Shown here piece after piece: positions 3,874-64,000 of a DNA stretch of 64,000 nt. The notes beneath the pieces are model-generated. The model saw only the letters and a list, made by a program, of their open reading frames with translations, made no database searches and had not been told where the DNA came from. Position 1 is the first letter of the stretch. Each line of letters starts with the position of its first letter. A program made the position numbers and the translations under genes. Origin of the DNA: Arenicellales bacterium (GTDB lineage: Bacteria > Pseudomonadota > Gammaproteobacteria > Arenicellales > Poriferihabitantaceae); assembly GCA_963693025.1 (NCBI GenBank), contig OY843749.1:2957617-3021616 (forward strand). The letters run 5' to 3'.

Positions 3874-3877
3874 GGCA

Positions 3878-6716: not shown

Positions 6717-6741
6717 AACCTCGCGGTTGATTTTAGTTGGG

Positions 6742-6770: not shown

Positions 6771-6861
6771 CCGCCGCACAACTTTCAATCAACTCCTTTC
6801 TTCACCGCCGCCTTCATCAACACGCGCGGGAAGATATAACCCGTGGGGAGAAGCAAAATCC

Positions 6862-7545
6862 ATGAGACATTACGAAATCGTGTTGCTGGTCCATCCCGAC
6901 CAGAGCGAGCAGGCGCCGGCGATGCTGGAGAAGTACAAGGAGATGGTGACCGCCGAAAAGGGGGTGGTTCATCGCGCTGAGGATTGGGGCAGGCGGCGCT
7001 TGGCGTATATGATTAACGAGATTTACAAAGCGCATTACATTATGCTCAATGTGGAGTGCGGCTTGGAGACGCTGCGCGAACTTGAGAAGAATTTCAAGTT
7101 CAACGATTCCATCGTGCGCAGTTTGGTGATTCGGCGCACGCGCGCGATTAGCGAGCAATCCGCGCTCGCCAGGGCGAAAGTGGAAGAGGACAGGATGGAG
7201 GCGGAGAAGGAAGCGGCGCAGCGCAAGGAGGCGGCGAAACGCCAGAGCGCCGAGGCGGCGAAACCGCCGCCTTCGGAGCCGGAAGCCGAACCGAAAGCCG
7301 AACCGAAAGCCGAACCGGAAGCCGCCGAGCCGGTTGAGGCGAAGGACGATAACGCGGATGAAAGCGCCGGCGAAGAGTCCGGCAAAAAAACCGGCGAAGC
7401 CGCCGGCGACGAGGTCGGCGAAGCGGTTGTCGAAGCGCCTGATAAAAAAACCGACGCGAAGGCGGACGACAAACCGGATGAAGTCAAATCCGAATCCGAA
7501 CCCGAACCCGAATCCGAACCCGAAGCACAACCGGAGAAAGTCTGA
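6862..7545 (+). CDS. rpsF: 30S ribosomal protein S6 with long acidic C-terminal extension
   Basis: Starts [17 protein letters not shown]..., a canonical S6 N-terminus. It is 227 aa, roughly 90 aa longer than E. coli S6, because of an E/A/K/P/D-rich tail. The stop overlaps the rpsR start. Confidence 0.93.
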
Positions 7546-7775
7546 TGGCAAGATTTCAACGCCGACCGCGCTTTTGTAAATTCACCGCCGAGGGGATTGA
7601 GTCCATCGACTACAAGGACTTGGACATTCTCAAAGCCAATATCAGCGAAACCGGCAAGATTTTGCCGCGGCGCAGCACCGGCACCAAGGCGCATTTCCAG
7701 AGGCAACTGGCGAGGGCAATCAAGCGCGCGCGCTATCTGGCGATGATTCCTTACACCGACCAACACGACAACTAG
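7545..7775 (+). CDS. rpsR: 30S ribosomal protein S18
   Basis: [30 protein letters not shown]...[20 protein letters not shown] is a canonical S18 sequence. Confidence 0.95.
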
Positions 7776-7797
7776 GCTCAGGCAATCAGAGGACAGG

Positions 7798-8418
7798 ATG
7801 GAAATCATCTTACTGGAGAAAATCCGCAATCTCGGCGACCTCGGCGAAACCGTCAAGGTGGCAAACGGCTACGCCCGCAATTTCTTGATTCCGCGCAAAA
7901 AAGCGATGCGCGCGACCGAGGAAGCCAAAGCCGAGGTGGAAGAGCGCCGGCGCCAACTGGCGATGGAGGAAAGCCAGCGGCAGGAAGTCGCCCAGGCGCG
8001 CGCCGACCTGGCGATTCGGGAAATCACCGTCACCCGTCTGGCGGGCGAAGGCGGTGGTCTGTACGGCTCGGTCTCGCCGGCGGACATCGCCGAAGCGCTG
8101 GCGGAAGCGGGCACGCAGATTGAAAAAGCCGAGATATTTCAGCCCGACGGACCGATAAAACAAATCGGCGAGTTTGAGGCGGAGGTGATTCTGCATCCGG
8201 AAGTTCGGTTCGGTTTGAAAATCACCGTGCAAGAAGGGCAGAGCAATGCGGCGTCGGCGGTTGAGGCGGCGGGGGATGATGCCGGGGCTGAGAGCGAAGC
8301 CGAGCCCGACCTTCCCGATGCCGACGCCAAAGCCGAAACCGCCACCGCCACCGCCACCGACACTCCCGACGCCGACGCCGAGACCGACCTCCCCAAAGCG
8401 CCGCAGGGCGGGGAATAA
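7798..8418 (+). CDS. rplI: 50S ribosomal protein L9 with acidic C-terminal extension
   Basis: MEIILLEKIRNLGDLGETVKVANGYARNFLIPRKKA is a canonical L9 N-terminus. It is 206 aa, about 55 aa longer than E. coli L9, with a D/E/A/T-rich tail. Confidence 0.93.
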   Translation: MEIILLEKIRNLGDLGETVKVANGYARNFLIPRKKAMRATEEAKAEVEERRRQLAMEESQRQEVAQARADLAIREITVTRLAGEGGGLYGSVSPADIAEALAEAGTQIEKAEIFQPDGPIKQIGEFEAEVILHPEVRFGLKITVQEGQSNAASAVEAAGDDAGAESEAEPDLPDADAKAETATATATDTPDADAETDLPKAPQGGE

Positions 8419-42536: not shown

Positions 42537-42765
42537 AGTAGTAGGCGCGCGGCGGTGGTAGGATGTGGCGTGTTGGGGTTGGGGGTGGCGCGGCGGTGGT
42601 TGTGGTGGCGCGAAGAAAGAAATACCGCATAGCCGCCAAGCGCCCACAGGTATATAATCCCTCATCAAACCACCGCCGCAACCCGCTTGCTTTTTCGGTG
42701 AACGGACAGCGAACGCCGCGTGTTGTCATACCGGTAATTAAATTTTGTTGAACGCGAACAGCACT

Positions 42766-44379
42766 ATGAAAAAACTAAACATTGCCGACTGGAATAAACT
42801 CGAAGAACGACAACCAACCCACGCATTGGTCTCCAACGTCGACCTGGTCATCATCCGCTACGGCGAATCGGTCTCCGTGTTGTATGGGCGTTGTGCTCAT
42901 CGGGGGGCGTTGATGGCGGATGGTTATATCACCGGCGACAACATCATCTGCGGTTTGCATGGGTGGGATTACCGCTTTGACACGGGTGTCAGCGAATACA
43001 ACAACAGCGAAACCCTGCCCAAGTTCACCGCGTGGATTGAGCAAGGCAAGGTGTGCGTGGATGAGGATGAAATTCTCGACTGGGAGCGCGCGCATCCGCA
43101 GCCTTATCGCCGCGCGTCTTATCAGGGCGCGTATCAAGACCCGGTCGGCACGCCCGATGAGCCGCATGTTAAATTGATTCGCCAACTCGCCGGTTCCGGG
43201 CTGAGCAAGACCGGGCACCACGGGCCGATGGGCGCGATGGGCGTGAGTCGGGAGCAACTGCCGCAGTGGGATGAATTGCAATTCGTCGTCGGGCAACTGG
43301 CGACTATGCCGCGGCTGGACGACGATGCGGTCGGCACCGACCTGGTCATCGGCGCCGCGGCGGCGAAGCCGTTGAAACTCGCCATCCCGTTGTTCGTGTC
43401 GGACATGAGTTTTGGCGCGTTGTCGGAGGAGGCGAAAATCGCGTTGTCCAAAGGCGCGGAACTCGCCGGCACCGGCATTTGCTCCGGCGAGGGCGGCGTG
43501 CTTCCCGAAGAGCAAGCCGCCAACAGCCGCTATTTTTATCAACTGGCGTCGGCGCGCTTCGGGTTTGGCTGGGACAAGGTGAAAAAATGCCAGGCGTTTC
43601 ATTTCAAGGGCGGGCAGGGCGCGAAAACGGGCACCGGCGGGCATCTGCCCGGTGTCAAGGTGCAGGGCAAAATTGCGGAGGTGCGGGGCTTGCAAGCGGG
43701 GCAGCCGGCGATTTCCCCGGCGCGCTTTCCGGACTGGGACAGCGTGGCGCAGATTGCCGATTACGCCGCCGAAGTGCGCGAACAAACCGGCGGAATTCCG
43801 GTCGGCTACAAGTTGTCGGCGCAGCACATTGAGCGGGACATCGACGCCGCGCTGGAGGTCGGCGTGGATTACATCATCTTGGACGGACGCGGCGGCGGCA
43901 CCGGCGCGGCGCCGTTGATATTCAGGGAGAACATCTCAGTGCCGACGATTGCGGCGGTCGCGCGCGCGCGCCGTCATCTCGACCGGTGCGAGCAGAAACA
44001 AGTCGCCTTGATCGCCACCGGCGGGCTCAGAACGCCGGCTGATTTCGCCAAGGCGATGGCGCTCGGCGCCGATGGCGTGGCGCTCTCCAACGCCGCGTTG
44101 CAAGCCATCGGCTGCCTCGGCATGCGCGCCTGCCACACCAACAACTGCCCGGTCGGCATCGCCACGCAGAAAAAAGATTTGCGCGCGCGCCTGATTGTGG
44201 ACGACGCCGCCAAGCGCCTCGACCGCTTCTTTCGCGCCTCGGTCGAGCTCATGCAAATCCTCGCGCGCGCATGCGGACACACGCACTTGAATCAGTTTAC
44301 GCTTTCCGACCTCACCACTTTCAACCGCGACATGGCGTATTTGACCGGTGTCGCTTATGGCGGCGTGGTTTCGTTGTAA
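42766..44379 (+). CDS. Rieske [2Fe-2S] domain fused to glutamate-synthase-related FMN (GltB domain 2-like) protein
   Basis: The N-terminus has CAHRG...x16...CGLHGW (CxH/CxxH). The C-terminal part has FVSDMSFGALS and GEGG...KGGQGAKTGTGGHLPG, typical of the GltS FMN domain. Confidence 0.75.
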   Translation: MKKLNIADWNKLEERQPTHALVSNVDLVIIRYGESVSVLYGRCAHRGALMADGYITGDNIICGLHGWDYRFDTGVSEYNNSETLPKFTAWIEQGKVCVDEDEILDWERAHPQPYRRASYQGAYQDPVGTPDEPHVKLIRQLAGSGLSKTGHHGPMGAMGVSREQLPQWDELQFVVGQLATMPRLDDDAVGTDLVIGAAAAKPLKLAIPLFVSDMSFGALSEEAKIALSKGAELAGTGICSGEGGVLPEEQAANSRYFYQLASARFGFGWDKVKKCQAFHFKGGQGAKTGTGGHLPGVKVQGKIAEVRGLQAGQPAISPARFPDWDSVAQIADYAAEVREQTGGIPVGYKLSAQHIERDIDAALEVGVDYIILDGRGGGTGAAPLIFRENISVPTIAAVARARRHLDRCEQKQVALIATGGLRTPADFAKAMALGADGVALSNAALQAIGCLGMRACHTNNCPVGIATQKKDLRARLIVDDAAKRLDRFFRASVELMQILARACGHTHLNQFTLSDLTTFNRDMAYLTGVAYGGVVSL

Positions 44380-44403
44380 CCGCCCGCCGCGCGACAACCA
44401 ACA

Positions 44404-46413
44404 ATGCCCATGACCCAAACGCACACGCCCGAATTACAATGGCACAAAATCGCCGACCTCGACGAGTTGCCCGAGGGCCGCGTCAAGACCGTAACCGCCG
44501 GCGCCAAGTCGATGGCGTTGACGCATGTCAACGGCGAATACACCGCGATGGACAACCACTGCCCGCATCAGGGCGGACCGCTCGGCGAGGGCTCCATTGA
44601 AGTCGGCAACGATGGCAAATGCTGGTTGCGTTGTCCGTGGCACGGCTGGGATTTTGACCCGCAGACCGGCAAGCCGCCCGGCGGACACGCGGACTCGGGG
44701 CAGACACTCTACGCGCTGGAAACCCGCGAAGACGGCATCTATCTCGGGCTGGAAGTTGAGCCGGAAAAAATCCCGACCATTTCCGATGTGATGGTGGAAA
44801 CCATGGTGAACTGGGGCGTGAAATCCGTGTTCGGCATGGTCGGGCATTCCAACCTGGGGCTCGCCGATGCGTTGCGCGTGCAAGAGGCGAAGGGCAAGGT
44901 CAACTACTACGGCATCCGGCACGAGGGCAGCGCCGCGTTTGCCTGCTCCGGCTACGCCAAAGCATCGGGCAAACCGGCGGCGTGCCTGACCATCGCCGGT
45001 CCCGGCGCAACCAATCTGCTGACCGGGTTGTGGGACGCCAAGGTGGACCGCGCGCCGGTGTTGGCGCTCACCGGTCAGGTCAATGTGCAGGTGTTCGGTC
45101 CCGGCGCGTTTCAGGAAATCGACCTCGCATCGGCGTTTGAATCGGTGGCGGAGTTTAGCCAAACCGTCTTGCACACCAGCAAGCACGGCGAGTTGATGAG
45201 CCTGGCGTGCAAGAACGCCATCGTCAACCGCCTGCCGGCGCATCTGATTTTTCCGGACGACGTGCAGACCATTGAAGCGGGCGCGAATGCCAAGGCGCAG
45301 GCGGGACATCCGCAGGGGCGTCTGGGCAATCCCGCTATCACGCCTTCCGAGGAGTCGGTGGCGCAGGCGGTCGCGCTGCTGGCGCAACATCGCAGACCCA
45401 TCATCATCGCCGGCTATGGCGCCAAGCACGCTATGCGCGAGGTCATTGCGCTGGCGGAAAAACTGGGCGCGCCAATACTCACCACCTTCAAGGGCAAGGG
45501 GCAAATTGCGGACGACCATCCGCTGGCGGCGGGCGTGCTCGGGCGGTCGGGAACGCCGATTGCGAGTTGGTTTATGAATGAATGCGATTTGATTCTGGCG
45601 TTTGGCTCGTCGTTTTCTAATCACACCGGCATCACCGAAAAACGCCCGATTATTCAGGTTGATTTTGAGCAGATGGCGCTCGGTAAATTTCATCCGGTGA
45701 CGCTGCCGGTGTGGGGCGAAATCGCCACCACCGCGCGCTTGCTCGGCGAGCGCATCCGAGTCGCCGGCAAAGTTGAAACCGTCGACCAACGCGATGAAGT
45801 CGCCGAGCGTTGGAAAATTTGGCGCAGCGAAAAACAAAACCGCCGCAGCGACGAGCGCGGCAAAGGCATCAACTCCGCCGTCATCTTCGATGCGTTGACG
45901 CGCTTGCTGCCCGGCGATGCAATCATTGCGGTCGATGTCGGCAACAACACCTATTCATTCGGCCGCTATTTTGAATGCGCGCAGCAGTCGGTGTTGATGT
46001 CGGGCTATCTCGGCTCCATCGGGTTTTCATTCCCCGCCGCGATGGGCGCGTGGGCGGCGACGCGGGATTGCGAAGAATTGCGCGGTCGTCCGGTGGTCTC
46101 AATCAGCGGCGACGGCGGCTTTGGGCAATACCTCGCGGACTTCACCACCGCCGTCAAATACAAAATGAACATCACGCACATCTTGCTGAACAACCACCAG
46201 TTGGGAAAAATTACCAAAGAGCAGCGCGCGGCGGAGTGGCAAGTGTGGCAGACCGCGTTGCATAATCCGAACTTCGCCGCGTATGCAAAGTTATGCGGCG
46301 CGTTTGGCGAGCGCGTGACGCAGCCCGGCAAGTTGGATGAAGCGGTAACGCGCGCGCTCGCCCACGACGGTCCGGCGCTGGTTGAAATTATTTCCGACCC
46401 GGATGCAATATAA
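44404..46413 (+). CDS. Rieske-like [2Fe-2S] domain fused to thiamine-diphosphate-dependent enzyme (acetolactate synthase/pyruvate oxidase-like)
   Basis: The N-terminus has CPHQGGPL...CPWHGW. The remainder has a ThDP-enzyme layout, including GDGGFGQY...NN (a ThDP-binding GDG-x-NN motif). Confidence 0.7.
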   Translation: MPMTQTHTPELQWHKIADLDELPEGRVKTVTAGAKSMALTHVNGEYTAMDNHCPHQGGPLGEGSIEVGNDGKCWLRCPWHGWDFDPQTGKPPGGHADSGQTLYALETREDGIYLGLEVEPEKIPTISDVMVETMVNWGVKSVFGMVGHSNLGLADALRVQEAKGKVNYYGIRHEGSAAFACSGYAKASGKPAACLTIAGPGATNLLTGLWDAKVDRAPVLALTGQVNVQVFGPGAFQEIDLASAFESVAEFSQTVLHTSKHGELMSLACKNAIVNRLPAHLIFPDDVQTIEAGANAKAQAGHPQGRLGNPAITPSEESVAQAVALLAQHRRPIIIAGYGAKHAMREVIALAEKLGAPILTTFKGKGQIADDHPLAAGVLGRSGTPIASWFMNECDLILAFGSSFSNHTGITEKRPIIQVDFEQMALGKFHPVTLPVWGEIATTARLLGERIRVAGKVETVDQRDEVAERWKIWRSEKQNRRSDERGKGINSAVIFDALTRLLPGDAIIAVDVGNNTYSFGRYFECAQQSVLMSGYLGSIGFSFPAAMGAWAATRDCEELRGRPVVSISGDGGFGQYLADFTTAVKYKMNITHILLNNHQLGKITKEQRAAEWQVWQTALHNPNFAAYAKLCGAFGERVTQPGKLDEAVTRALAHDGPALVEIISDPDAI

Positions 46414-49391: not shown

Positions 49392-49484
49392 TAGTGCTAA
49401 AATTGCCGTTTGGCGATGCCAATTTTAGTGGTTTATCGAGCCGCCAAAAGCGTTATAGTGCTATCTCTAATATCGGATGACATA

Positions 49485-52319
49485 ATGAACACCATTCACA
49501 GTTTGTTAAGGAATAAGGTCGAGACATGGGTAAGACTGGAGAAAGAAAATAACCAATCTCTTGTCAAAAATATGCTTCAACACATTGACAAAGTCGGAAA
49601 GCTTCGCCCACCGCAGAAAGAAGCCATAGAAACCCACCTTTGGATTAAATTCGTGGGCAATAATAAAAAACTCTCTGATGTGGTAAGGAACGGGCTTTTA
49701 TATGACGATAGCGTTGCCATGACGTATGGAAATTATCTCACTTTCAAAAAAGGCGATTATGTTGCCCAATTCTTGAATCAATTCTTTCAAGATAACAGGT
49801 TAAAGAACCTGCACAAGGAACTCTTAAATGATCCAAATGGAAAAGAAATCAGTTGGAATTCCACGCTTGATGACTTGCTCCACAATTTCGAGTACCCAAA
49901 TTACCTCTACAGTCTTCCAATGGGGGCAGGCAAAACATTTTTAATGGCTTGTTTCATTTACCTTGATCTTTATTTTGCTACTTTATTCAAAGAAGATAAA
50001 AGATTTGCTCACAACTTCGTTGTTTTCGCGCCACACTCTGCAAAAACCGCAATCCTTCCATCCCTCCGAACAATCAAGGATTTCAACCCTGAATGGATAC
50101 TGCCAAAGAATGATGCCGATAAACTGAAACAAGTTATTTCTATTGAGATACTTGATAGTTTAAGTTCCAAAAGAAAAGACAAGTTGCATGGAAATAACCC
50201 AAACCTTGAAAAAGTAAATCGAATGAAACAGACAAAAGATTTTGGGCTTGTCTTTATAACCAACGCTGAGAAAGTAGTACTTGAAAAGTATGATGATAGG
50301 GATAAAGCGCTGGTAGATAGCCTTGAGAGAGGACAAGCAGATGCGCTTGATGCGCGCTCGATCGATGAAATAAAGAAATCGAATCAACTCAGAGAAGCAT
50401 TATCGCAGATACCAAATCTAACGGTAATACTTGATGAAGTGCACCATTCTTACGGAAGCACGGGAAACGGAGAGAAAAAACTGAGGCAGGCGGTCAATAT
50501 ACTAAACCAGCATAAACACATTAATACCGTTATCGGATTATCCGGTACACCCTACGTTAAAAGTGAAATTAAAGTTGCCGACAACAGTATACGATTAAGT
50601 CAGATACAAGACATAGTTTATAACTACCCCTTAAATATTGGCATTGGCAAGTTTCTAAAGAAACCTGTCATTAAAAAAGCAAGCGTAAGAGAAAAAGCAT
50701 TTATCCAACAGGCTCTTTCAGACTTTTTTAAGGATTATGACAAAAAGTATAAGGATGGAACAAAAAGCAAAATAGCTTTTTACTGTCCTTCGATTAAAAA
50801 ATTGAATGATGATATTCTTCCTGTCGTTCAGGAATGGTACCGCAAAAATCGCTCTAAAAAAGAAGAAGAAATATTTAGATATTATTCGAAAGTAAAAAAG
50901 GATAATAAGCAGTATGCGTTACCAAGAGATAGCCTTGCTATTTTCAACAATCTCGACAGACCATACTCAAAAAAACGGGTAATTTTATTGGTTGCAGTCG
51001 GCACGGAAGGTTGGGATTGCAGAAGTCTGACAGCGGTTGTATTGCCAAGACAAGACACGCCTAAGAATTTTGTATTGCAGACAGCTTGCAGATGTTTGAG
51101 AGAGGTTGATGATTCGGCGCACGAAAGTGCGCTTATTTATTTATCAGAAGAAAACCATGAAACTCTCGACAAAGAATTGAAGGAAAATTATCAGCTTTCA
51201 ATATCCGATTTCTCTGAAAGGAAAGAACAAACGATACAAGTTCAAGTTCGCAAACCAAAACTGGGAAAACTCAAATACAAGCAAATTGACACTCGTTACA
51301 AGATTGTCAAAAAAATGGCGCCCGACATAAAGAAAGAATTGACAAAGTTAAGATTTTCAAAATTGAAAAGCAAGTATAAGTATGACAAGAGCATCGTCTC
51401 CGGCACGATCGGTAAAACGGGGATAACAGGTGAGGTAGCAGCAGATCACATCAAGGAAAAAAGCAACGGCATGTTTTCTTTTGCAGAATTTATTTACAGT
51501 CTGTCTGCCAATACATATGCAAAGTTTAGCGAACACGAACTGGAGAGTAAGTATAAAGATGACCTTTCACAAATACATAAACAAATTTCTAGAAATTTGG
51601 AATGGATAAATTTAAATCCTTATATCGGATTAACTGATATTGTAAAGTTTATCGCGGCCAGTTTTATGGACAAGGTGGAATACACCAAAGATATTATAAA
51701 AAACGAAACTGAGATTGAACTTCTGGAGTGGGCAGGCACTGACAATGAGATGAGTTTCTTTTCTCCAACCGGATCAACTTATAAGTTTATGCCGAAAATT
51801 AGTATGGCGAATTATGGGGGAAATAGAGGCTACGGGAAACACCTAGAATATATGGAAGACGACTTTTTTGGAGAGAGCGGTATCGACCCACAGGACATCA
51901 GTTTTAATTACATTCCTTACAAAATGGACAGCGAATTTGAGCAAAATACTCTTGCGGAAATGTTGAAATTGGCTGAACTCAAGGGGCTTGAAATTTATTT
52001 TAACGGGTATAAAGATGAAAAACTGCAGTCATTTTGGATACAAACACCGCGAGGAAAATATACTCCGGATTTTTTGATATTGAAAAGAAAGGGGGGTAAA
52101 TACAGGAAAAACAGAAAGGCGATTATTGACAAGGTGTTTATTGTCGAGACAAAGGGGAAACCTTATTACAACGATGAATTTAAAGCGAAAGAGAAGTTTG
52201 TTAATGACGAGTTTTTGAGGCATAATGAGCACTTCGAATATCGTTGTTTCCTCGATGACGGAAAAAACGATTTCACAAAGCATCTTGGTAGATTTAAGAA
52301 ACTTTTGGAAAATTTCTAA
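49485..52319 (+). CDS. Type III restriction enzyme Res-like SF2 helicase-nuclease (island 2)
   Basis: Walker A SLPMGAGKTF, DEVH box (VILDEVHHSYG) and LSGTPY. The C-terminal PD-(D/E)xK-like motif is YTPDFLILKRK...VFIVETKGK. Line 50581-50640 has 18/60 G+C. ATG 49485 is preferred over TTG 49410. Confidence 0.8.
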   Translation: MNTIHSLLRNKVETWVRLEKENNQSLVKNMLQHIDKVGKLRPPQKEAIETHLWIKFVGNNKKLSDVVRNGLLYDDSVAMTYGNYLTFKKGDYVAQFLNQFFQDNRLKNLHKELLNDPNGKEISWNSTLDDLLHNFEYPNYLYSLPMGAGKTFLMACFIYLDLYFATLFKEDKRFAHNFVVFAPHSAKTAILPSLRTIKDFNPEWILPKNDADKLKQVISIEILDSLSSKRKDKLHGNNPNLEKVNRMKQTKDFGLVFITNAEKVVLEKYDDRDKALVDSLERGQADALDARSIDEIKKSNQLREALSQIPNLTVILDEVHHSYGSTGNGEKKLRQAVNILNQHKHINTVIGLSGTPYVKSEIKVADNSIRLSQIQDIVYNYPLNIGIGKFLKKPVIKKASVREKAFIQQALSDFFKDYDKKYKDGTKSKIAFYCPSIKKLNDDILPVVQEWYRKNRSKKEEEIFRYYSKVKKDNKQYALPRDSLAIFNNLDRPYSKKRVILLVAVGTEGWDCRSLTAVVLPRQDTPKNFVLQTACRCLREVDDSAHESALIYLSEENHETLDKELKENYQLSISDFSERKEQTIQVQVRKPKLGKLKYKQIDTRYKIVKKMAPDIKKELTKLRFSKLKSKYKYDKSIVSGTIGKTGITGEVAADHIKEKSNGMFSFAEFIYSLSANTYAKFSEHELESKYKDDLSQIHKQISRNLEWINLNPYIGLTDIVKFIAASFMDKVEYTKDIIKNETEIELLEWAGTDNEMSFFSPTGSTYKFMPKISMANYGGNRGYGKHLEYMEDDFFGESGIDPQDISFNYIPYKMDSEFEQNTLAEMLKLAELKGLEIYFNGYKDEKLQSFWIQTPRGKYTPDFLILKRKGGKYRKNRKAIIDKVFIVETKGKPYYNDEFKAKEKFVNDEFLRHNEHFEYRCFLDDGKNDFTKHLGRFKKLLENF

Positions 52320-52321
52320 CG

Positions 52322-54142
52322 ATGAAAAAATCGAAACCATACAACCTATCGCCGGCAAGAGGGCAAGCGCTTCTTAACTTTGAGGGTAGAAGGTTCCCTG
52401 ACAAACTAGATGTGTTTGAAACTGAAGTCATTGAAACAGTCCGAAAGAAACAGTCGAAAGCGCAGTCCTTGTTAAGCGAGGAAAGTGATTTAAATGCTGA
52501 TTTCAGGAATTTACTCATTCAAGGTGATTGTTTATCTGCTTGCGCCTATTTGAAGTCAAGGAGCATTAAGGTCGATTTAGTTTATATTGATCCACCGTTT
52601 GCAAGCGGAGCAAATTATGCCAAGAAGATTTACCTGCGTAATGGGGGCAAATCTCAGATCGAAGCGGACGACAATACTATTGGTGAAGAGGTGATGTATG
52701 GAGACATCTGGCAAAAAGAAGATTACCTTAATTGGTTGTATGAAAGATTGCTCGTAATTAAAGATGTTATGAATGAAACAGCAAGCATTTATGTGCATTT
52801 GGACTGGCATATTGGGCATTATGTAAAGATATTGATGGATGAAATATTTGGGGAGGAGAATTTTAGGAACGAGATTATTTGGCATTATCCGGATAACTTC
52901 CAAGGCAATGTAAACCGGTATCCTATTAACCATAATGTAATTTTTTATTATGTGAAAACAGCAGACAATTTTGTTTATAAAAGATTGCAAGAGAAATTGG
53001 ATAAAAAAGTAAAACGACCAACAAGAATATGGGATAAAACTACACAAAAACTAGAAATTGACCGCGATCATAACGGTGCTCCGGTATACAAAGAGTATAG
53101 TGAGAAATTTATTGATGATGTTTGGCGGATTGCACAAAGACCGGTTGTAGTGCCGGGTAATAAAGAACATACTGGCTATACAACTCAAAAACCTGAAGCT
53201 CTTTTAGAGCGTATCATCAAAGCATCGTCAGACGAAGGGATGATAGTTGCTGATTTCTTTTCCGGTTCTGGAACAACAACCAAAGTAACCAGCGATCTAA
53301 ACCGTAAATTCGTAGCTTGCGATATAGGCATCAATGCCCTGCAAACTACAAGAGATCGCCTTGTCAAGGCTGGGGCAAATTTTGATATATTGAAAATTAA
53401 TGATGGTTTACGCCTTTTCAGAAACCCAGCACAAACAACCGCAAAAATATTCAGCATCATTGATGGTTTCAGGTCCAGAACAGATTTGGATTTAAATGAC
53501 TTCTGGGATGGTGGTATCGCTCAGGCAAAAGGCTCCTACACCCCTGTAAAATTTTCAGGCATTCACGACAAACTCACCAAAGAACTCTTGGATGTATATC
53601 TGGAAGAAATCTATAAACTCGAAGACACCGACAGCGCCAGTGAAGTGGTTATTATTTATGCCCATAAAGATGTGGATATTGACCAAGCATCGTTGGATAA
53701 ACGACTCAAGAGAATTGCTAAAACAGAGATACAGGTAAAACTTGTTTCTTTGGATAGCCTGCTAGGTGAGAAAAAAGACGCTCTTTTCACGCCTGACAAC
53801 GCAGATATTAAAATAACCAAGAAAGGAAATAAATACAAAGTAGAAATCAAGAAATTTTACAGCCCTTACCTGAAAAATAAAATTGACGAGTACAACGCAA
53901 AGAAAGTGAAAAGTGGCACGATAGTAAAAATCGGCAATGCTGGATTAGAAATGATTGAAGCGGTGCAATTTGATACTACTTGTCGGAAAGTTTGGAAAAG
54001 CAACAGTGATTTAGAAGATAAAGCAGGCGTTAAAGACAGAGTCAAAGCCGTTTATACACTCGCCACGAGCAACTTTAGAATGAAAATTAGAAACATAGCA
54101 GGTGATGAAATAATAATTGATAGCAAGGAAATAAGCGGCTAG
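52322..54142 (+). CDS. beta-class amino (N6-adenine/N4-cytosine) DNA methyltransferase, Type III Mod-like (island 2)
   Basis: Motif IV VYIDPPFASGANY precedes motif [24 protein letters not shown] is present. It starts 2 nt after the res stop. Confidence 0.85.
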   Translation: MKKSKPYNLSPARGQALLNFEGRRFPDKLDVFETEVIETVRKKQSKAQSLLSEESDLNADFRNLLIQGDCLSACAYLKSRSIKVDLVYIDPPFASGANYAKKIYLRNGGKSQIEADDNTIGEEVMYGDIWQKEDYLNWLYERLLVIKDVMNETASIYVHLDWHIGHYVKILMDEIFGEENFRNEIIWHYPDNFQGNVNRYPINHNVIFYYVKTADNFVYKRLQEKLDKKVKRPTRIWDKTTQKLEIDRDHNGAPVYKEYSEKFIDDVWRIAQRPVVVPGNKEHTGYTTQKPEALLERIIKASSDEGMIVADFFSGSGTTTKVTSDLNRKFVACDIGINALQTTRDRLVKAGANFDILKINDGLRLFRNPAQTTAKIFSIIDGFRSRTDLDLNDFWDGGIAQAKGSYTPVKFSGIHDKLTKELLDVYLEEIYKLEDTDSASEVVIIYAHKDVDIDQASLDKRLKRIAKTEIQVKLVSLDSLLGEKKDALFTPDNADIKITKKGNKYKVEIKKFYSPYLKNKIDEYNAKKVKSGTIVKIGNAGLEMIEAVQFDTTCRKVWKSNSDLEDKAGVKDRVKAVYTLATSNFRMKIRNIAGDEIIIDSKEISG

Positions 54143-54196: not shown

Positions 54197-55342
54197 ATGA
54201 CAAAAAATTTTTTCAACGAAAGCACGAAACAGTCACGGGTCAAGTCTGCCATCGTTGCCAAATATTTTACAGCTTGGGCAAGGATAATTATTGGGGCCCA
54301 AAACAAGAATCCAGCGCAAGAGGATAAAAGAATTGCTTACATAGATTTGTTTGCCGGGCCGGGTCGATATTCAGATGGCACAACTTCAACGCCTTTGCGG
54401 ATTTTGGGAGTGGCCATTAAGAACGAAGATATTCGTCAAAGACTCGTAACATTTTTCAATGATAAAGATCAAGAGCAAATGAATTCGTTAGAGAAATCTA
54501 TCGGTCAATTATCGGATGTAGATTCACTCAAACATCCTCCAGAAATTTCAAATCAGGAAGTTGATGAAACTATCGCTAATACGTTTGAAAATAAAAAACT
54601 CGTTCCCACACTCTTTTTCTTCGACCCATGGGGTTATAAAGGGGTTACTTTGCGCTTGCTTAAGTCTGTACTGAAAGATTGGGGTTGTGATTGCATTTTT
54701 TTCTTTAACTATAATCGTATCAATATGGGGCTGAATAATCCTATGGTCAAAGAACATATGAATATGCTTTTTGGTGCGGAGCGTGCAGACAAATTAAGGA
54801 GGAAATTAAGTAGACTTTCCACGACTAAACGGGAATCGACTATCCTCGATGAATTGTGCGGTGCGCTACACGAATCTGGACCAGAATATGTATTACCGTT
54901 TTGCTTCAAGAATGACCGGGGGACAAGAGTGAGTCATTACCTAATATTTGTGAGTAAGAATTTCAAAGGTTATGAAGTTATGAAGGAAATTATGGCCAAA
55001 GAATCTTCGACAATTGTACAGGGTGTTGCCAGCTTCGAGTATAATCCAGCGGCGACACAAGTGCGGCAGGTGCTATTCTTTCCGTCACGCCCCCATGAAG
55101 CGTTGCGTCCTCTTGATGATTTGGGTGATATGCTTCTCAAAGAATTTTCTGGAGAAACAATCACGATGCGACAAATCTACAAACGACACAGCGTTAATCG
55201 CCCTTACATCAGTGCAAACTATAAGGAAGTACTCCAACAATTGGATCAACAACAAAAAATTACAGCACCTAAACACAAAAAAGGTACATTCGGAGATGAT
55301 GTTCCCGTAACATTTCCTCGATTAAAAGGAAATGAGCAATGA
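54197..55342 (+). CDS. tcmP: three-Cys-motif partner protein TcmP-like
   Basis: The N-terminus [23 protein letters not shown]...[11 protein letters not shown] and the later [10 protein letters not shown] match my memory of the TcmP family. It is followed, with an ATGA overlap, by a Gp37/Gp68-type gene, the defining context of that family. Confidence 0.65.
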
Positions 55343-56058
55343 GCGGAACATCGTCAATCGAATGGACCGAGACTACTTGGAATCCAGTCACAGGCTGTAC
55401 CAAAATCAGCGCCGGATGCAAGCATTGCTATGCTCATCGTATGGCTTTTCGGCTTCAGGCTATGGGTAATAAACGCTACCAGAATGGGTTCAAAATTACC
55501 CTCCACGACGACCTGATTGATGCGCCGAGAAGGTGGCGTTCATCACGTATAATTTTTGTCAACTCCATGAGCGATTTGTTTCATAAGGACGTGCCAACCG
55601 AATTCATTCAGCGCGTATTCCAAACGATGAACGATTGCCCGCAGCATACCTTTCAAGTATTAACCAAACGCGGCGGTCGCTTGAAAACTCTGGCGAACAA
55701 GCTCAACTGGACACCGAATATCTGGATGGGTGTCAGTGTAGAGGACGAACGTGTTTATCACCGCATCCATGACTTGCTTGAAGTGCCCGCTCATGTCCGT
55801 TTTCTTTCCTGCGAACCGCTAATTGGGCCAACGGAAAATCTGCCGCTTGATGGCATCCACTGGGTGATTGTTGGCGGTGAATCGGGACCTAAAGCAAGAC
55901 CGATGGAAAAAACTTGGGTTTGGTCAATCAGAAAACAATGTCGTGCTGTTGATGCCGCTTTCTTTTTCAAGCAATGGGGTGGTGTTCAAAAGCATCGGCA
56001 CGGGCGTCTGCTTAACAATCGGACATACGATGAAATGCCGGAAACTCAACCGGCATAG
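55339..56058 (+). CDS. phage Gp37/Gp68-family protein (DUF5131), three-Cys motif
   Basis: [26 protein letters not shown] (C-x6-C-x2-C) and the later [10 protein letters not shown]...FFFKQWGG are as I remember for PF07505 proteins. Confidence 0.7.
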
Positions 56059-56062
56059 CTGA

Positions 56063-56086
56063 GCGCGTTTTACGCGCGTTTGTTTT
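56063..56086 (+). terminator. rho-independent terminator candidate ending island-2 operon
   Basis: GCGCG-tttta-CGCGC followed by GTTTGTTTT, 5 nt after the stop of the DUF5131 gene. Confidence 0.5.
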
Positions 56087-56217: not shown

Positions 56218-56555
56218 CGTCATTCACAACAACCTCGTCATTCTCGAGCGTTAGTGTCCGTTGCCGCCGCGCTTTTTCTTTTAAGCGGCGGCTTACCGGA
56301 CACTTGCGTCCTCGGGAATCTCCCTAAGACTGACGCGGACTTGAACAAAGCGAGCGAAGCAGGCGGCGGGTAAGCCGCCATTCCCGCAGTCTTTTGAGCG
56401 GGAATGACGTTGTTTGGGCTCAGCGCTAGTCTTAGGGAGATTCCCGAGGACGTAAGCGCCCGTAAGTCGCTGCGCGACAACGGGCGCTAACGCTCGAGAA
56501 TGACGAGGTTATTGTGAATGACGGAGTAGGGGGACACTAACGCTCGGGAATGACG
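56218..56555. repeat. MITE-like repeat, copy 7 (composite: S end, nested insert, second S-like end, extra end modules)
   Basis: The core is 56236..56505. It has a 19-bp central hairpin, GGGAATCTCCCTAAGACTG/CAGTCTTAGGGAGATTCCC, enclosing an insert shared with copy 3. The extra modules reach 56555 and overlap the stop of the PglB-like gene. Confidence 0.85.
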
Positions 56556-58846
56556 CCTACTTCCCACAACGACACCGTCGGGCTCTGCACAAAAGCGTGA
56601 CGGAAGTAAGCGGGGTTCATTGTGTGGCGGATGAATAGGCGGTTGATTAGTGACTCGGCTACTTCGTGGGTCATTAGCATTCCGAATGCGGCGCTGGGTA
56701 TCCATTCGAAGTGCAGGCCGCCGGGGTGTCCGTAGTCGGTTTCTTCTAGCGCGTGTCCGGTGTGGGTGATGAATTTGTTGAGGGGTTGGCGGATGGTTTC
56801 GTCGTTGACCGAGAACACGGTGTTTTTTCCCTCGCGCACGTCGAAGGAGAAGTCGCCGCCGGTCATCAGCCTGTCGCCTTGCAGGCGCACGTTGTGGAAG
56901 AGCAGATGCGCCGGCGGCAAGCCCTTCCCGCGCGCCGCGTCCCAGGTGCCATACCAGAACCATTTGCTGGTTAGTTGCTCGTGATAGATGGACAGGAAAA
57001 TCGGCTCGGTGTTGTTGGGAAACAGGAAAGCGCGGCACGCTTCCACGGTGGCGAACTCATCGCCGTCGTTAGCGGTGCTTGATGCCGGCGCATCGGCAGC
57101 GAGTTGGTGCAGGCTTTGCGCGGCTGCATCGGCGGGCTTGCCAAACCATTCCCGCATCCAGCGCAAGCCCGTGTCGGTCGAGCCGGCGAGTTGGTTGATT
57201 TTCCGCAAGCCGCTCAGACCGCGTTGCGCGTAAAAACGAATGAAGTGGCGCGCGAACGCCGGGTCGTTGCTCGCCAGCGGCATATTCGCATAGACCTGCC
57301 GCTCGCCGCTCATAAACTCGCCATCCGCAATCACGCGCCGCCCGGTGTAATACATAATCGGATAGCCGAGCGACCACGGCGCCCACAGGAGCGCGTCGGG
57401 CGGGGTGTGCGCGCGAATGGCTTGGATGACCGGCAGCGCCAGCGTGATGCGCGGCGACAGCACCGATGAATCCAACTCGCGCGCCGCCGCCGGCACGATG
57501 GCGAGCGCCGCGCCCGCCGCGAAGAGGGGAGCGGCGAGCCAGTGCGCGGGCATTTCCAACCCAAACCGCAACCCCAATCGCCGCGCATGGCGGGCGGCGA
57601 GGGCGAGGATGAAGCCGGTGCCGATGCCGAGCGGCGGTCCCCAGAACAGCAGCCCGCGCTGGCCGAAGTAGAACGCGCTGAGGGCGAGCAGCACCGGCAC
57701 GGCGAGCGCGGTGAATGCCGCTTTGGGTTGCGCGCACGCCAGCCACGCGAGACCGGCGATGCCGAGTAGCAGGCTCGCGAGGAGACCCGTGGTGTTGTTA
57801 ATCAGCGATTGCAGACCGAAGCCGCCGAGTTCGGCGATGTCGGTCGCCACGTTGGGAAAGCCGCCGCCACCGCCACCGCTTTTGATGCCGTAGAACAAGA
57901 TTTCCCGGATGTTGCGCACGAGCGCGACCAGTTGTTCGCCCCACACGCCCGCCACGACGATGAGCAGAACCAACCCGAGCGCGGCGGCGGCGAGCGCTTC
58001 ACCGCGCGGCGGGCGGTAATACCACGCGGCGCTGATGAGCAACGGCGTGAGGCAAATCACCGCGACCACTTCCGGCGCCAGGTCCCACCACAGCGCGAAG
58101 AGTGCGGCGTTGAGCGCGGCGCCGAGCAGATAGAAATACCGCCGGCGGTCGCGGCATAAGCCGAAGCCCAGCGCCGCCGCCTGCGCGCCCAGGGTGAAGG
58201 CGACGATGAGGCAGTCGGTGTCGAATGCGCCGAGGCGCGTGCGCGTGACGAACCACTGGGTGTTGAGCGCAACCAGCGTGGCGACCAGCGCGGCGAAGGG
58301 CGGGATGCGCAACTGCCGGCAGAGCATCAGCACCGGAATGGACAGCAACAGGGCGAGGGCAATCGGCAGCAGCACGGCGGTCCACGCCAGCGACAGGGGA
58401 GTGGCGGCGCTGACCGTGGCGGTCATCCACGAGAGCAGCGGCACCGGCGCAGGGCGCGGCGGATGCTCCGGCGTGGTTCGCAATTCGTCGGTGGGCGCAT
58501 AGCGGTCGTCGCGATAGTCGCGCGCCAAGCGCAGGTAGTGGTAGCCGTCGGCGTTCAGCAACACCGGCTGGTCGTCAAAGAAATACCGCTCGCGATGGTC
58601 TTGCCACGCGCCGTAATCGGCAACGCGCAATGCGGCGCTGATGCCCAGCACCAGTAATAGGAGCAGCCACCATGTCGTGCGTGCGAGGCGGGTGGTGCTG
58701 AGCTCAGCGGTGGCGGTGGCGGTTGGCGACGACGGTTCCGGCGGCAACGGCGGCAACGTCGGCTTAGCGTCAGCCACCGCCGCCGTGTCGGTTACCGCCG
58801 ACTTGCGACCCGGCTTTCTTTTCCGGTGGGAGCGATTGGATGCCAA
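56537..58846 (-). CDS. STT3/PglB-family oligosaccharyltransferase homologue with non-canonical WWDYG region
   Basis: Four segments parallel Campylobacter PglB. [24 protein letters not shown] parallels [34 protein letters not shown] parallels [19 protein letters not shown] parallels [32 protein letters not shown] aligns with [22 protein letters not shown]. The protein has about 13 TM helices plus a periplasmic domain. Confidence 0.75.
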   Translation of the reverse strand: [769 protein letters not shown]

Positions 58847-60304: not shown

Positions 60305-62101
60305 TTATTTGGTGATAATCGTTTCTTCTCCCAGCATATCTACAATCTTTACTGCGATTTTAGCTTTGGCGCTGGGAAGGGACAACGTATACCGGCCTTT
60401 GATGAAGTCGCTTTTCTTTTGCGGGATGTCACTTTCCACGATGTTGAAGTGCTTGTTATTGTAGTTGGTGTCAATCAGTACGCAGTCGATTTGCGCGCGG
60501 AAGTCATCGATATGCTCATCAAAAAGCGTTCGGTCAATATTTAATCTAGCAAGGATGGTCGGGCTGATGTACTGCTCAATAGTTACGGTTGCCCGTTTCC
60601 CTCTTTTTGTGATTTTCACTTCTGATTCTGCGGGTTGATTGGTTATCATACCGTCCTGTTGAATATCGTGGACGGTGATTTTATTGATGGGACTCTTCTC
60701 CTCGGAAAGTTCGTTGATTATTTCCAATTCGGAACCGTTGCAGAACACTGCAATATCTCGAATATCGTCCGCCCGGTTGTTGGCAATTTCATCTTTGATG
60801 ATTTGTATATCCAATCGAGTCAACGGTCTGTTCAGGTCAATAACTTTTGCCAGCAAACCACCGACCGTTCCATCAAAGAACATATCCTGACGATCTATTT
60901 GAATGCCGTATTTGGAGATAATTATTTTCTTGAGATCGTTCTGTTTGGCACAGTCGTAATTGTTCACCCGATAGTGGATAAGTCCATGCCCATTTTTTTC
61001 CGTCAGTTTGTCGTTTTTTTCTTTGATTATGCTTTGTAATCTGTTGATGGTGGTTTGGATTGCGCCTTTGTTCAAATCAGCCATAATCCAGCGACGGCCT
61101 AATTTTTCCGTGACTGCGGCGGTTGTACCGGAGCCACAGAAGCAGTCAAGGATGATAGAATTTTCGTTGCTAGATGCTTTGATTATGCGCTCTAAAAGGG
61201 CTTCTGGTTTTTGGGTTGGGTAAGGTGTTCTTTCGAGGGCCACAGGATTTATCATTGAAATCTCCCAAAAATCACTAGTTCCTTCTTCAAATTTCCATAC
61301 ATCTGGCATAGGAACGCCTTTCGTCGGTTCTTTAGTTTGAATTGACACTCTTTGCCCATATTCATTAACGACACTTTTCCACGCAACTCCTTGAGCACTG
61401 GATTGTTCGCTTTTTGGAATAAACATTTGATTGAAAATATGAGACCCTTTTGTTTTGGCATACCAAAACACATTGTCGTAATTACTTGCAAATGATTTGG
61501 CTTCAATATTCCAGCGTCTGTAATACCATGCGATATTATTGCAAAAATTCTCCTCCCCAAAAACTTCATCTAATAAAAATCGCAAGTGATGATTTTTGCG
61601 CCAATCGCAATGCAAATAAATACTGCCTTGATCGCTCAACAACTCCCGTAGCAAAATCAATCGCTCATACATGAACTGTAAATAATTATCATTTGCCCAA
61701 ATGTCCTCATACTGCGCTTGTTCTACTCTTGAGTAACCTTCACTCGCAATTTCGTTACTATTTCCGTTACCATTTCCATTGCCTACACCGCGCAACTTGA
61801 CCTTGCGCACATAATCCGCGCCACTGTCAAATGGTGGATCAATATAAATTAAATCAATCTTTCCCCTAAACCCCGAAATCAAAAGGGAAGACAGAATTTC
61901 TTTGTTATCGCCGTGAAGCAGTAGATTGTAATTATTTTCGGCAAATTGCTTGTAAGAGGGCTCCGCGGGTGGATTGCTTATGCCAACTCCTTCACACAAT
62001 TGTGCGGGAAAATGCTTGACAACATCAAGCGGCTTTTTGCCTACCCAATGCAATAATGGACGACCTTTGACGGAACTAATTTTAAGCGACTTCTTTTTCA
62101 T
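60305..62101 (-). CDS. beta-class amino DNA methyltransferase, Type III Mod-like (island 3, paralogue of 52322..54142)
   Basis: Motif [15 protein letters not shown], then [17 protein letters not shown] and motif [10 protein letters not shown]. The region is AT-rich. The start overlaps the res stop (ATGA). Confidence 0.85.
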
Positions 62102-64000
62102 TTCCTCACCCAGTCCATAACTGGCTTGATGTCTTCGATACCGATAGCGTTTGTCGAAGTATAGACGATGTTGTACTTGAACCTGTCCGGTTGTATTTTT
62201 TGCAACCTCTCGACCGCCTTTCTCTTGGCTTCCACGATAGCGTCCTTGCGTCTACTTTCGTCTTTAACCTCAACGATGTAAAATTCCCCAGTCTTTTTTA
62301 CAATCACGAAATCGGGAAAATAGCGGTGATACCGCTTGTCCTCACCCAGATATTCAAAGTGAAAATCGGTTTTTCTCGAATCGGTCATTCCACCGGTGAA
62401 TAAGAACGCTTCCACATCATCGGGGTCAGTATTCAGCACGGATAAAACCTGTTGAAATAATGAACGCTCTGGCTGGCTGTCAAAGTTGTAAGGATCATAG
62501 TGAAAACTCAGATTATGCTTGTCCGAATACTGGCCGCTTTCAGCAAACAGGTCATTTTGCTTCATTTCATCGTATGTTTTTTCCAGCAAGCGCAAATTAT
62601 GAACATAAACATCATTTGCATCTTTCTCAAAAACATCCTCCCCGTTCTCATCCTGCATTCGAATTAACGCCATCACTTCTGTTACCGTATCTTTAACTGT
62701 TTTGTAGTTCGCTTGCTGTTGTTCGACCTGACGAAAAAGTCCGTATAGATGATTATCCGGTATTTCCCCTTTCGGGTAAAAGTTGTTCAGTTTTTCCAAT
62801 ATCCACATCACAGGCAAATGATATCGCGATGCGATTTTCCAAGCGGCGGTGTGGCAATCTGTTCCTCGCTTTTCCGCAGGCAACTCCATGGTTTCGCCTG
62901 TCGGCAACAATATTTCCCTCGGTCCGCTGAAATCCGGTGTTAATATGCTACGCAGAATTCCGGGCATTTGTTGCGCTTTTGGTTTTGTTAAAGCGACCTT
63001 CCCGCATTTTGCGTCATCCCTTTCCGCTCTTTTCACCGTACGGGTGATTTCCAGTTTCGGTAGTTCGGTTTTGAGGATGCGCAGAGTGACGGTTTTTTTG
63101 TTGCGTTCCCTAAATCTAAGATCATCCAAATTGGAACGAAAATTTTCCTGCAACTGTTTGTTTAGCGTGTTGGAATTTCCGGAGTCGAGAAAGATTTTTG
63201 CCGAATGTGTGTTGCCCGGAACCTGCCGCAAACATCGAGTTGCCGCTTGTAAGACGTAGTTGTTGCTTGATGTTTGTTCTTTAATTAACGCACAAGCAAA
63301 CAAACTTGGGCAATTCCAGCCTTCCACCCCTTTGCTGATAAGTAAAATCACCCGCTTTTGATTGCCGGGATTATTAAGCCGTTTGAATTCGTCTATCTGG
63401 GCGGCGGCGGATGTTTGCGTATTTACCAGTATCTGTGCAGCATTTTCCCCGACTTTGGCCATCGCCAATTCAATCAGCGGTCGGGAGTTGTCCAAGTGCG
63501 CTTGCGTTTTGAAATAGAAAGCAATTTTTGCTTTCGCTCCGTTGGGAAGTGAAACATCGCCGTAATTATTGAAAAATTCCTCTATGATGTCGGCAAATAC
63601 GATTTTTTCTGAGCGTTTTTTCAAGTTGTATTGATGAATGCCATTATTCAGGTCTTTCAAAATGTTGTCTTTGATGCCTTCCCCAAGTCCATACCAGACA
63701 ATCACCTCTTTCAAGGGTTGCTTTTTATAGTATGGCGTTCCGGTTGTGTTGATTACTGCAATTATCTGTGTTTGTTGATGTATGTAATCAATTGTTTCCC
63801 GCACTCGTTTTATTTTGTCAAAAGTATTTCCATAGGTATGGTGGGCTTCATCGGAAAACACGCCGAGATTCGGCAGACTTGCAATTTTTTGCAATCTTAA
63901 ATTTGCTTGCGCTTCTTTGTGCTCAAAAGCTAGCGCGCTCTGATTGCTTCTTTGCTTGGCGCGCAGGCTGATTTTTTCGGTGTTGGTTACAATCAAGTTA
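62098..64000 (-). CDS. Type III Res-like SF2 helicase-nuclease, 5'-truncated by window edge (island 3)
   Basis: DEAH box ([12 protein letters not shown]), TTGTPYY, and the C-terminal PD-(D/E)xK-like [22 protein letters not shown]. Walker A is not seen, so the N-terminus must lie beyond 64000. Confidence 0.8.

Follow-up and report, generated by a model that had tools for sequence, protein, structure and literature searches.

A TcmP-DUF5131 gene pair in an Arenicellales genome as a candidate two-subunit, SAM-dependent enzyme

Introduction

The TcmP family (three-Cys-motif partner protein, TIGR04474) and the DUF5131, or phage Gp37-Gp68, family (PF07505) form a catalogued, uncharacterised gene pair. 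RadicalSAM.org/SFLD places DUF5131 in the radical S-adenosylmethionine (SAM) subgroup Megacluster-5-2, with MJ0683-like proteins in 5-1 and spore photoproduct lyase in 5-3 (PMC9477430), and PADLOC includes the pair among its candidate defense systems. Here we describe such a pair in a stretch of 64,000 nucleotides from an Arenicellales bacterium (GenBank assembly GCA_963693025.1, contig OY843749.1, positions 2,957,617 to 3,021,616 of the forward strand; this whole stretch is called the window). The PADLOC candidates are matched there by adjacent components, with E values of 1.1e-28 for PDC-M30A, 6.6e-116 for PDC-M30B and 9.4e-122 for PDC-M41B.

An earlier note on this DNA, made from the letters alone, had read methyltransferase-like motifs in TcmP and a cysteine triad in its partner, and had supposed that the two proteins form a SAM-using enzyme that modifies nucleic acid. 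That idea is strengthened by our analysis. On balance, we think that TcmP and DUF5131 probably make up a single SAM-dependent enzyme for base modification in nucleic acid, the favored substrate being DNA, and that they travel as a mobile module of defense islands.

Results

The two genes and their partnership

The pair is laid out in the window as follows.

54197-55342, plus strand: tcmP, an open reading frame (ORF) for TcmP (381 amino acids), with a class I SAM-methyltransferase-like domain at about residues 1-270 and a C-terminal winged helix
55339-55342, plus strand: ATGA overlap of the tcmP stop and the DUF5131 gene start, read from the DNA
55339-56058, plus strand: DUF5131 (phage Gp37-Gp68 family, PF07505) gene for a protein of 239 amino acids, by its family a minimal radical-SAM-type protein like spore photoproduct lyase

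Both ORFs and the overlap, which the earlier note had reported, are present in the window DNA, the peptides that it had quoted were found in TcmP (residues 46-58 and 140-149) and in DUF5131 (residues 7-32), and the start codons of both genes are consistent with the N termini of homologues. The overlap had also been taken to imply stoichiometric co-translation. It is real here, but such co-translation does not extend to the family, in which a 4-nt overlap occurs in about one-fifth of the co-directional pairs and 25 of 80 pairs are convergent. Translational coupling through the ATGA is a local feature of the window.

To judge how firmly the two genes belong together, we compared 83 related loci, which span many phyla (Cyanobacteria, Chloroflexota, Planctomycetota, Acidobacteriota, Desulfobacterota, Bacteroidota and others; loci are numbered with L and proteins with P). 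A DUF5131 gene immediately adjoins tcmP in 80 of them, and one of the other three loci has a divergent Cys-rich relative with GCSHGCLYPCYA. Among the 80 pairs, 52 have the order TcmP then DUF5131, three are co-directional in the reverse order, and 25 are convergent (L023, L027, L030, L036, L037 and 20 others), the last being mostly cyanobacterial, with 3' ends that mostly overlap by 8-23 nt. This tail-to-tail arrangement is unusual and conserved. RefSeq annotation adds a divergent arrangement on a Mycolicibacterium plasmid and a convergent pair with a 4-nt overlap in Gordonia phages.

The two families also diverge together, their pairwise divergences being correlated with a Mantel r of 0.58, a value reached by none of 999 permutations. 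Furthermore, a search with the concatenated proteins found single-chain fusions, DUF5131 at the N terminus and TcmP at the C terminus, in two lineages (P0391/P0392 and P0393-P0395), with linkers of about 20-70 residues. The P0391 fusion ORF was verified on its contig (L101:6001-7896), where it lies inside a toxin-antitoxin and type I restriction island. On plasmid pHALXA02 of Halopiger xanaduensis (L100:4317-8107), TcmP adjoins two canonical SplB-like radical-SAM genes, and no DUF5131 gene was seen among its annotated neighbors; a ThiF-family gene is nearby. Both of these radical-SAM proteins match the PA0069 and Rv2578c models, and one carries TGCRHGCKFCY, so that a "TGC...GCxxCY" signature is common to the DUF5131 triad of the window and this canonical radical-SAM partner.

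Thus, adjacency in all four orientations, correlated divergence, fusions and the radical-SAM neighbor in Halopiger all strengthen the idea of a two-protein enzyme, and there is very good support for TcmP having a radical-SAM protein as its functional partner. Neighbor clustering over the 83 loci yielded no conserved third gene; the recurrent clusters turned out to be shadow ORFs or generic paralogues, for instance kinases and ABC ATPases. The idea that DUF5131 is the more conserved partner was dropped, its mean identity being 0.55 versus 0.61 for TcmP across TcmP-selected loci.

TcmP models as a class I methyltransferase with a winged helix

Over residues 12-269, TcmP scores 205.4 bits with TIGR04474 (E = 1.5e-60), where the cut-off is 53, and its sole Pfam match is PF22560 (GMT-like winged helix-turn-helix, E = 1.9e-15). 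We aligned it with 59 homologues of 37-52% identity, drawn from a search that yielded no fewer than 2,544 clusters (50% identity level), and its main features are these.

54332-54370, plus strand: motif I, the predicted SAM-binding loop after strand beta1 (residues 46-50); TcmP residues 46-58, with G54 and G56 invariant
54458-54463, plus strand: N88-D89 at the end of strand beta2 (residues 83-88), the presumed motif II acidic position; N in 57 and D in 55 of 59 sequences
54614-54643, plus strand: motif IV-like, putatively catalytic loop directly after strand beta4 (residues 138-142); TcmP residues 140-149
55049-55267, plus strand: C-terminal winged helix-turn-helix (Pfam PF22560), residues 285-357; kept in 59 of 59 homologues

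Nine columns of the alignment are invariant (K16, G54, G56, L98, P137, D143, P144, G146 and L309), and conservation is at least 90% at Y48, D50, Y58, S64-T65-P66, F87-N88-D89, F141, Y147, K148 and G149. Five of the nine invariant columns fall in the two motifs that the earlier note had picked out, for which the family consensus reads Y-[IV]-D-L-[FY]-[ASC]-G-x-G-x-Y (motif I) and F-x-D-P-[WF]-G-Y-K-G (motif IV-like). By this alignment, the two motifs are the core of the family and not chance resemblances. The likeness of the first to SAM-binding motif I is supported by the position of its loop after beta1 and by its invariant glycines (the distant Halopiger TcmP has Ala at the G56 position). 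In class I methyltransferases, the acidic residue of motif II at the end of beta2 binds the SAM ribose. The second motif had been likened to the (D/N/S)-P-P-(Y/F/W) motif IV of gamma-class amino-methyltransferases. Its position after beta4 and the gamma-type linear order hold, with 93 residues from D50 to D143, but the exact motif does not, since the TcmP loop is D-P-[WF]-G-Y (of the 59 sequences, 38 have W and 16 have F at position 145, and 54 have Y147). This loop is the best-conserved 10-residue block of the protein (0.98). Elsewhere, conservation is even along the length, and there is no hypervariable target-recognition segment. Longer homologues (403-512 amino acids) have no additional Pfam domain, and their starts are probably mis-called.

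An AlphaFold2 model built from the homologue alignment has a pLDDT of 94 and a pTM of 0.92. Its layout is that of a seven-stranded, Rossmann-like class I fold with motifs I, II and IV after beta1, at the end of beta2 and after beta4, and it includes a helical insert (172-226), a beta6/beta7 hairpin (231-253; strands 231-238 and 245-253) and the helices and strands of the winged helix at residues 305-372. In a Foldseek search of the PDB, only SAM methyltransferases (CmoA, Trm1, RlmJ, PsiM, TrmM, METTL16 and Trm5) were matched at probability 1.0, with E values of 6e-6 to 5e-4 and TM-scores to the query of 0.30-0.38, and every match among viral models was likewise a methyltransferase. The earlier note had named a non-Rossmann fold as a finding that would refute it; the confidence of the model and the methyltransferase-only matches argue against such a fold. 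The confident model shows TcmP as a SAM methyltransferase fold of class I to which a winged helix is joined.

DUF5131 as a radical-SAM relative

The DUF5131 protein matches PF07505 with 333 bits against a gathering threshold of 28.9 (E = 1.3e-99, model positions 2-243 of 243) and phrog_2045 with E = 2.4e-96. It also matches TIGR04471, "radical SAM mobile pair protein A", with E = 1e-21, its 77 bits lying below the equivalog cut-off of 355. Its cysteine motif, which the earlier note had described as recalling the radical-SAM CxxxCxxC without matching it, lies at the following position.

55396-55428, plus strand: Cys triad C20-x6-C27-x2-C30 in the loop after beta1, the predicted [4Fe-4S] ligands, assigned from conservation and alignment

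Each of the 78 full-length TcmP-linked copies has all three cysteines, so the conservation across homologues that had been set as a test is borne out; the C-x6-C-x2-C spacing occurs in 73 of 80 TcmP-linked copies. Ten homologues from phages, prophages and archaeal viruses, with identities as low as 27%, retain the triad; when viral homologues are counted in, C27 and C30 stay invariant, and C20 is still conserved to at least 90%. Conservation across the family does not extend to the remaining cysteines: C100 and C158 differ even between TcmP-linked copies, and some viral homologues have lost C201. In three of the most divergent homologues (L089, L091 and L092), a canonical CxxxCxxC aligns with the triad (GCLHGCEYCYA, GCTYGCSFCYA and LCPEACEYCYA). 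Because these members have the canonical motif at the same column, the clade of the window has a 3-residue insertion in a genuine radical-SAM motif, and the resemblance first noticed is one of homology. TIGR04471 is matched by 14 of 14 diverse DUF5131 members (best E = 7.6e-33), and some members match further radical-SAM models, namely PA0069 (4.9e-4), mobile pair B (1.1e-4), Rv2578c (0.017) and NrdG. On these sequence comparisons, we conclude that DUF5131 is a radical-SAM relative and that the triad is its cluster motif, the cluster itself being predicted.

Distribution and defense context

The TcmP-DUF5131 pair turned up in 535 or more of the species genomes that were scanned, in many bacterial phyla, and related pairs occur on haloarchaeal plasmids and in phages. 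A defense phenotype for PDC-M30/M41 was not found in the literature searched. In a sample of eight loci with Pfam labels and flanks of 8-10 kb, restriction-modification (R-M), toxin-antitoxin, TIR or ThiF/ubiquitin-like genes are nearby in seven (L002, L003, L094, L095, L096, L098 and L101); the neighborhood of the eighth, L097, is ambiguous, with just HNH and a caspase-like gene. The Sinorhizobium meliloti TcmP gene SMa2243 is listed right after the Hna defense gene SMa2245 in a table of nolR+-upregulated genes (PMC12445080).

Among phages, DUF5131 occurs in 181 records, mostly without TcmP and amid replication and recombination genes. TcmP-like genes were found in only eight, all Gordonia phages, where they stand beside DUF5131 between integrase and immunity repressor and already carry the annotation "methyltransferase". 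In Gordonia phage ThankyouJordi (L084:4248-6826), the TcmP-like gene is immediately downstream of the immunity repressor, with the integrase near. Prophage-expressed defense genes of actinobacteriophages usually occupy such a position. The neighbors and the PADLOC matches point to a mobile defense-island module.

Cassette exchange at the window site

The site can be compared with that of a sister strain (L102, positions 1-7976), which is 99.6% identical to the window across an acetyl-CoA-synthetase-like gene. Between that gene and DUF5131, the sister strain has a cassette of a 380-amino-acid protein, a HerA-like ATPase and a type II-like methyltransferase, and no TcmP; the 380-amino-acid protein was tested as a hidden TcmP and rejected. 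DNA identity between the two strains along the DUF5131 gene is 63-82% over the first 210 bp and 96-99% over the last 360 bp, and it stays at about 94% for 180 bp more downstream of the gene. The two strains thus have the 3' two-thirds of DUF5131 in common.

55550-55700, plus strand: recombination junction inside the DUF5131 gene; 96-99% identical to the sister strain on the right, 63-82% and then unrelated on the left

By this shift in identity, the DUF5131 gene of the window is a recombinant and the site a hotspot for defense cassettes with its junction inside DUF5131. The GC content, 39.5% over most of tcmP and 46.7% over most of the DUF5131 gene in 1-kb bins, and the closest relatives, at 90-91% identity for DUF5131 and 68% for the closest non-self TcmP, are consistent with a mosaic origin of the DUF5131 gene. 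The comparison implies that cassettes have been exchanged at this site and that an intact DUF5131 can persist without TcmP.

The pair closes a low-GC island of about 49.4-56.1 kb, with a GC content of 37-47% versus 60-67% in the flanks. The island also holds Type III-like restriction genes, which we report as context, not as parts shown to belong to the enzyme.

49410-52319, plus strand: Res, 969 amino acids, with ResIII and RE_endonuc domains, Type III-like
52322-54142, plus strand: Mod, 606 amino acids, with an N6_N4_Mtase domain, Type III-like

Here res precedes mod, the RE_endonuc domain is C-terminal in Res, and a gap of 54 nt separates mod from tcmP; Res is only weakly similar to a BPTD_3080-type restriction endonuclease model. 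A tightly packed Res-TcmP-DUF5131-Mod order, with the same Res architecture, occurs at L020, Type III-like genes adjoin the pair at L010, and L007 has short ORFs that cluster with the Res and Mod proteins of these loci. The Mod proteins of the Type III-linked loci share just 26-32% identity. The association of the pair with Type III-like genes, seen in a few percent of loci, is suggestive.

A second low-GC island (GC 41-46%; 60305-63996, minus strand) holds a further Type III-like system, again with res before mod. Its Res and Mod are about 29-30% identical to those adjacent to TcmP, and no TcmP or DUF5131 is attached.

60305-62101, minus strand: second-island Mod, 598 amino acids, Type III-like
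From 62098 and extending beyond the window, minus strand: second-island Res, at least 632 amino acids, Type III-like

Other features of the window

56060-56082, plus strand: terminator-like hairpin with a T run behind it, 2 nt past the DUF5131 stop; a consensus match only

This hairpin is likely to mark the end of the transcription unit, judged by its form and position; taken together, terminator-like sites are no more numerous in the region than chance predicts.

Immediately to the right of the island, at 56218-56555, is a nested inverted-repeat element of about 300 nt, with 50-nt arms that are 92% complementary and 43-nt and 24-nt arms inside. Further copies lie at 1613, 13084, 15848, 29905, 35903 and 42513, and the 24-nt core, CGTCATTCTCGAGCGTTAGTGTCC, occurs nine times in the window versus zero expected. 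The element looks like a dispersed host repeat of the repetitive extragenic palindrome or miniature inverted-repeat transposable element kind (REP/MITE-like). An Rfam "MIR839" match at 56222-56518 was far below the gathering score and was set aside as an artefact of the long hairpin.

Directly right of the island (56537-58846, minus strand) is a gene for a 769-amino-acid, high-GC membrane protein with weak similarity to STT3/PglB oligosaccharyltransferases. At 42745-46413, two adjacent genes encode unusual N-terminal Rieske [2Fe-2S] fusions, one with a glutamate-synthase-type flavin mononucleotide domain (544 amino acids) and the other with a thiamine-pyrophosphate enzyme (669 amino acids).

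Discussion

In the enzyme that we propose, DUF5131 would be a minimal radical-SAM protein of the spore-photoproduct-lyase/PA0069/Rv2578c branch, whose C20-x6-C27-x2-C30 loop would hold a [4Fe-4S] cluster and whose cleavage of SAM would give a 5'-deoxyadenosyl radical. TcmP, with its intact SAM-binding loop and its D-P-[W/F]-G-Y loop of the amino-methyltransferase type, would bind a second SAM, and it would present the target base for the radical step and probably N-methylate it, while its C-terminal winged helix would bind the polynucleotide. The pair is a self-contained mobile module of defense islands and prophage lysogeny regions, and in the window it closes a horizontally acquired low-GC cassette. 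What the analysis shows directly is the TcmP fold, the conservation of the motifs, the homology of DUF5131 to radical-SAM proteins, the tight linkage of the genes and the fusions. The metal cluster, SAM cleavage, methyl transfer, complex formation, the substrate and the defense role are what we infer from the comparisons above. DNA is slightly favored as the substrate because of the spore-photoproduct-lyase-like branch, the R-M contexts (among them the Type III-like operons in which the pair lies here, at L020 and at L010), the phage DNA-metabolism contexts and the winged helix.

Several results weigh against this enzyme. The literature searched held no biochemical or genetic study of either family. 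For TcmP, a Pfam scan of 59 members at E <= 5 matched no methyltransferase family, and searches of PDB sequences with the single sequence and with a profile found no relative, which places TcmP on an outlying branch; its top structural matches are RNA and small-molecule methyltransferases, none of them DNA methyltransferases. For DUF5131, PF04055 (Radical_SAM) was not matched at E <= 5 in 29 members, so that neither protein can be claimed for the corresponding Pfam families, and the same two kinds of PDB sequence search found nothing. The AlphaFold2 model of DUF5131 has seven beta/alpha repeats at a moderate pLDDT of 77, with the Cys loop below 50, and Foldseek gave no match for it at E <= 0.001. 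The best match had E = 0.018, and the weak matches included LIAS, NifB and spore photoproduct lyase at E = 0.02-0.2, with a best TM-score to the query of 0.46. Since these fold matches are non-significant, the radical-SAM assignment is a matter of sequence evidence. The canonical GGE SAM-binding motif is absent from the end of beta2. Finally, about 170 phage genomes and the sister strain have DUF5131 but no TcmP, so the partnership is not obligatory for DUF5131.

The most serious rival is that the pair modifies RNA. TcmP would then be an N-methyltransferase of the Trm1/RlmJ/TrmM type acting on tRNA or rRNA, and DUF5131 would supply a radical step comparable to multi-step tRNA hypermodification or to Cfr-like resistance methylation. 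This reading draws its weight from the structural neighbors of TcmP, which are RNA methyltransferases (Trm1, RlmJ, TrmM, Trm5 and METTL16, alongside CmoA, are top matches), and from a substrate that appears conserved, as the lack of a hypervariable target-recognition region suggests. In addition, the m2,2G tRNA methyltransferase Trm1 has a D-P-F-G catalytic loop, which resembles the D-P-[WF]-G of TcmP. However, DUF5131 groups with the DNA-acting spore photoproduct lyase, the distribution of the pair is patchy and mobile, and its neighbors are R-M, defense and phage DNA-metabolism genes and never translation genes. We regard an RNA substrate as unlikely, although it must be taken seriously.

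It is less likely still that the pair follows an R-M-like or toxin-immunity logic, in which DUF5131 would damage unmodified nucleic acid by radical chemistry and methylation by TcmP would protect the host target. A two-gene mobile module of defense islands that PADLOC counts as a candidate defense system would suit such a role, as would the convergent and divergent arrangements, which are typical of type II R-M systems. Natural fusions of DUF5131 with TcmP would be unusual for a toxin and its immunity factor, however, and intact DUF5131 exists without TcmP in the sister strain and in many temperate phages; both observations make this logic improbable, and TcmP has no variable specificity region.

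Non-enzymatic readings of the pair are unlikely, and we give very little credence to the view that the cysteines of DUF5131 bind structural zinc, with TcmP a stand-alone methyltransferase and the linkage due to regulation or hitch-hiking, because the unmatched PF04055, the non-canonical cysteine spacing and the weak fold match that speak for it are set against a canonical CxxxCxxC in divergent members, matches to radical-SAM NCBIfam models, the canonical radical-SAM protein adjoining TcmP in Halopiger and the fusions with TcmP.

For the two-subunit enzyme acting on a nucleic-acid base, a bolder extension is possible but doubtful: that the pair carries out a new radical-SAM-based nucleic-acid chemistry in phage-host conflict. 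In one version, TcmP would N-methylate a flipped-out base, and its spore-photoproduct-lyase-like partner would then abstract a hydrogen from the methyl group so added. This would create a methyl-derived DNA adduct or crosslink of a kind not known before, which could act either as an epigenetic self-mark or as a replication-blocking lesion in invading DNA. If combined methyl and radical chemistry on a base were true of the pair, it would mean a modification of DNA or RNA not seen before and possibly a new principle of defense. The present analysis adds a structural confirmation, traces the Cys motif to that of radical-SAM proteins by homology, and brings in the fusions and the canonical radical-SAM protein beside the Halopiger TcmP. 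A database name is thereby turned into a testable hypothesis with defined sites for point mutants: C20, C27 and C30 in DUF5131, and G54, G56 and D143 in TcmP.

How, then, does the pair compare with known systems? Like spore photoproduct lyase, PA0069, Rv2578c and MJ0683, DUF5131 is a small protein, putatively a partial barrel, with a Cys triad right after beta1, and belongs to the same megacluster. Proteins of this group also give weak model matches and the best TM-score to the DUF5131 query (0.46), and it is one of their type that adjoins TcmP in Halopiger. Unlike spore photoproduct lyase and SplB-like proteins, it is shorter (about 240 amino acids), has C-x6-C-x2-C in the clade of the window and does not match PF04055; the likeness to spore photoproduct lyase carries no demonstrated repair role for DUF5131.

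TcmP shares with Trm1, RlmJ, TrmM, METTL16 and M.TaqI a Rossmann fold, the motif order I-II-IV and a D-P-aromatic loop after beta4, and, like amino-directed class I methyltransferases, it has in its model a C-terminal domain that would bind nucleic acid. It differs from them in its D-P-[WF]-G-Y loop, in its lack of a match to a Pfam methyltransferase family and of a variable target-recognition domain, in TM-scores of just 0.30-0.38 and, under our proposal, in needing a radical-SAM partner.

With RlmN and Cfr there is a functional analogy alone: SAM would serve as the source of both methyl and radical on a nucleic-acid base, and Cfr is also mobile. RlmN and Cfr combine the two tasks in a single radical-SAM polypeptide by way of a methyl-cysteine, whereas the pair has a separate Rossmann methyltransferase-like protein, and no homology between the systems is shown. 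The radical SAM mobile pair A/B (TIGR04471/TIGR04470) is also a mobile two-gene module, and DUF5131 members match model A; the DUF5131 protein of the window, however, is a relative and not a member (77 bits against a cut-off of 355), and its partner is TcmP, not a second radical-SAM protein.

Nothing essential separates the window pair from PADLOC PDC-M30/M41 and the TIGR04474/PF07505 pair, as its two proteins are adjacent and far above the family thresholds. It is a typical member of that pair, because the TcmP name, the SFLD class, the "methyltransferase" annotation in phages and the PADLOC listing already imply most of what we describe. Its local features, by comparison with a typical TcmP/DUF5131 pair, are that it closes a Type III-like restriction cassette and that its DUF5131 gene is recombinant.

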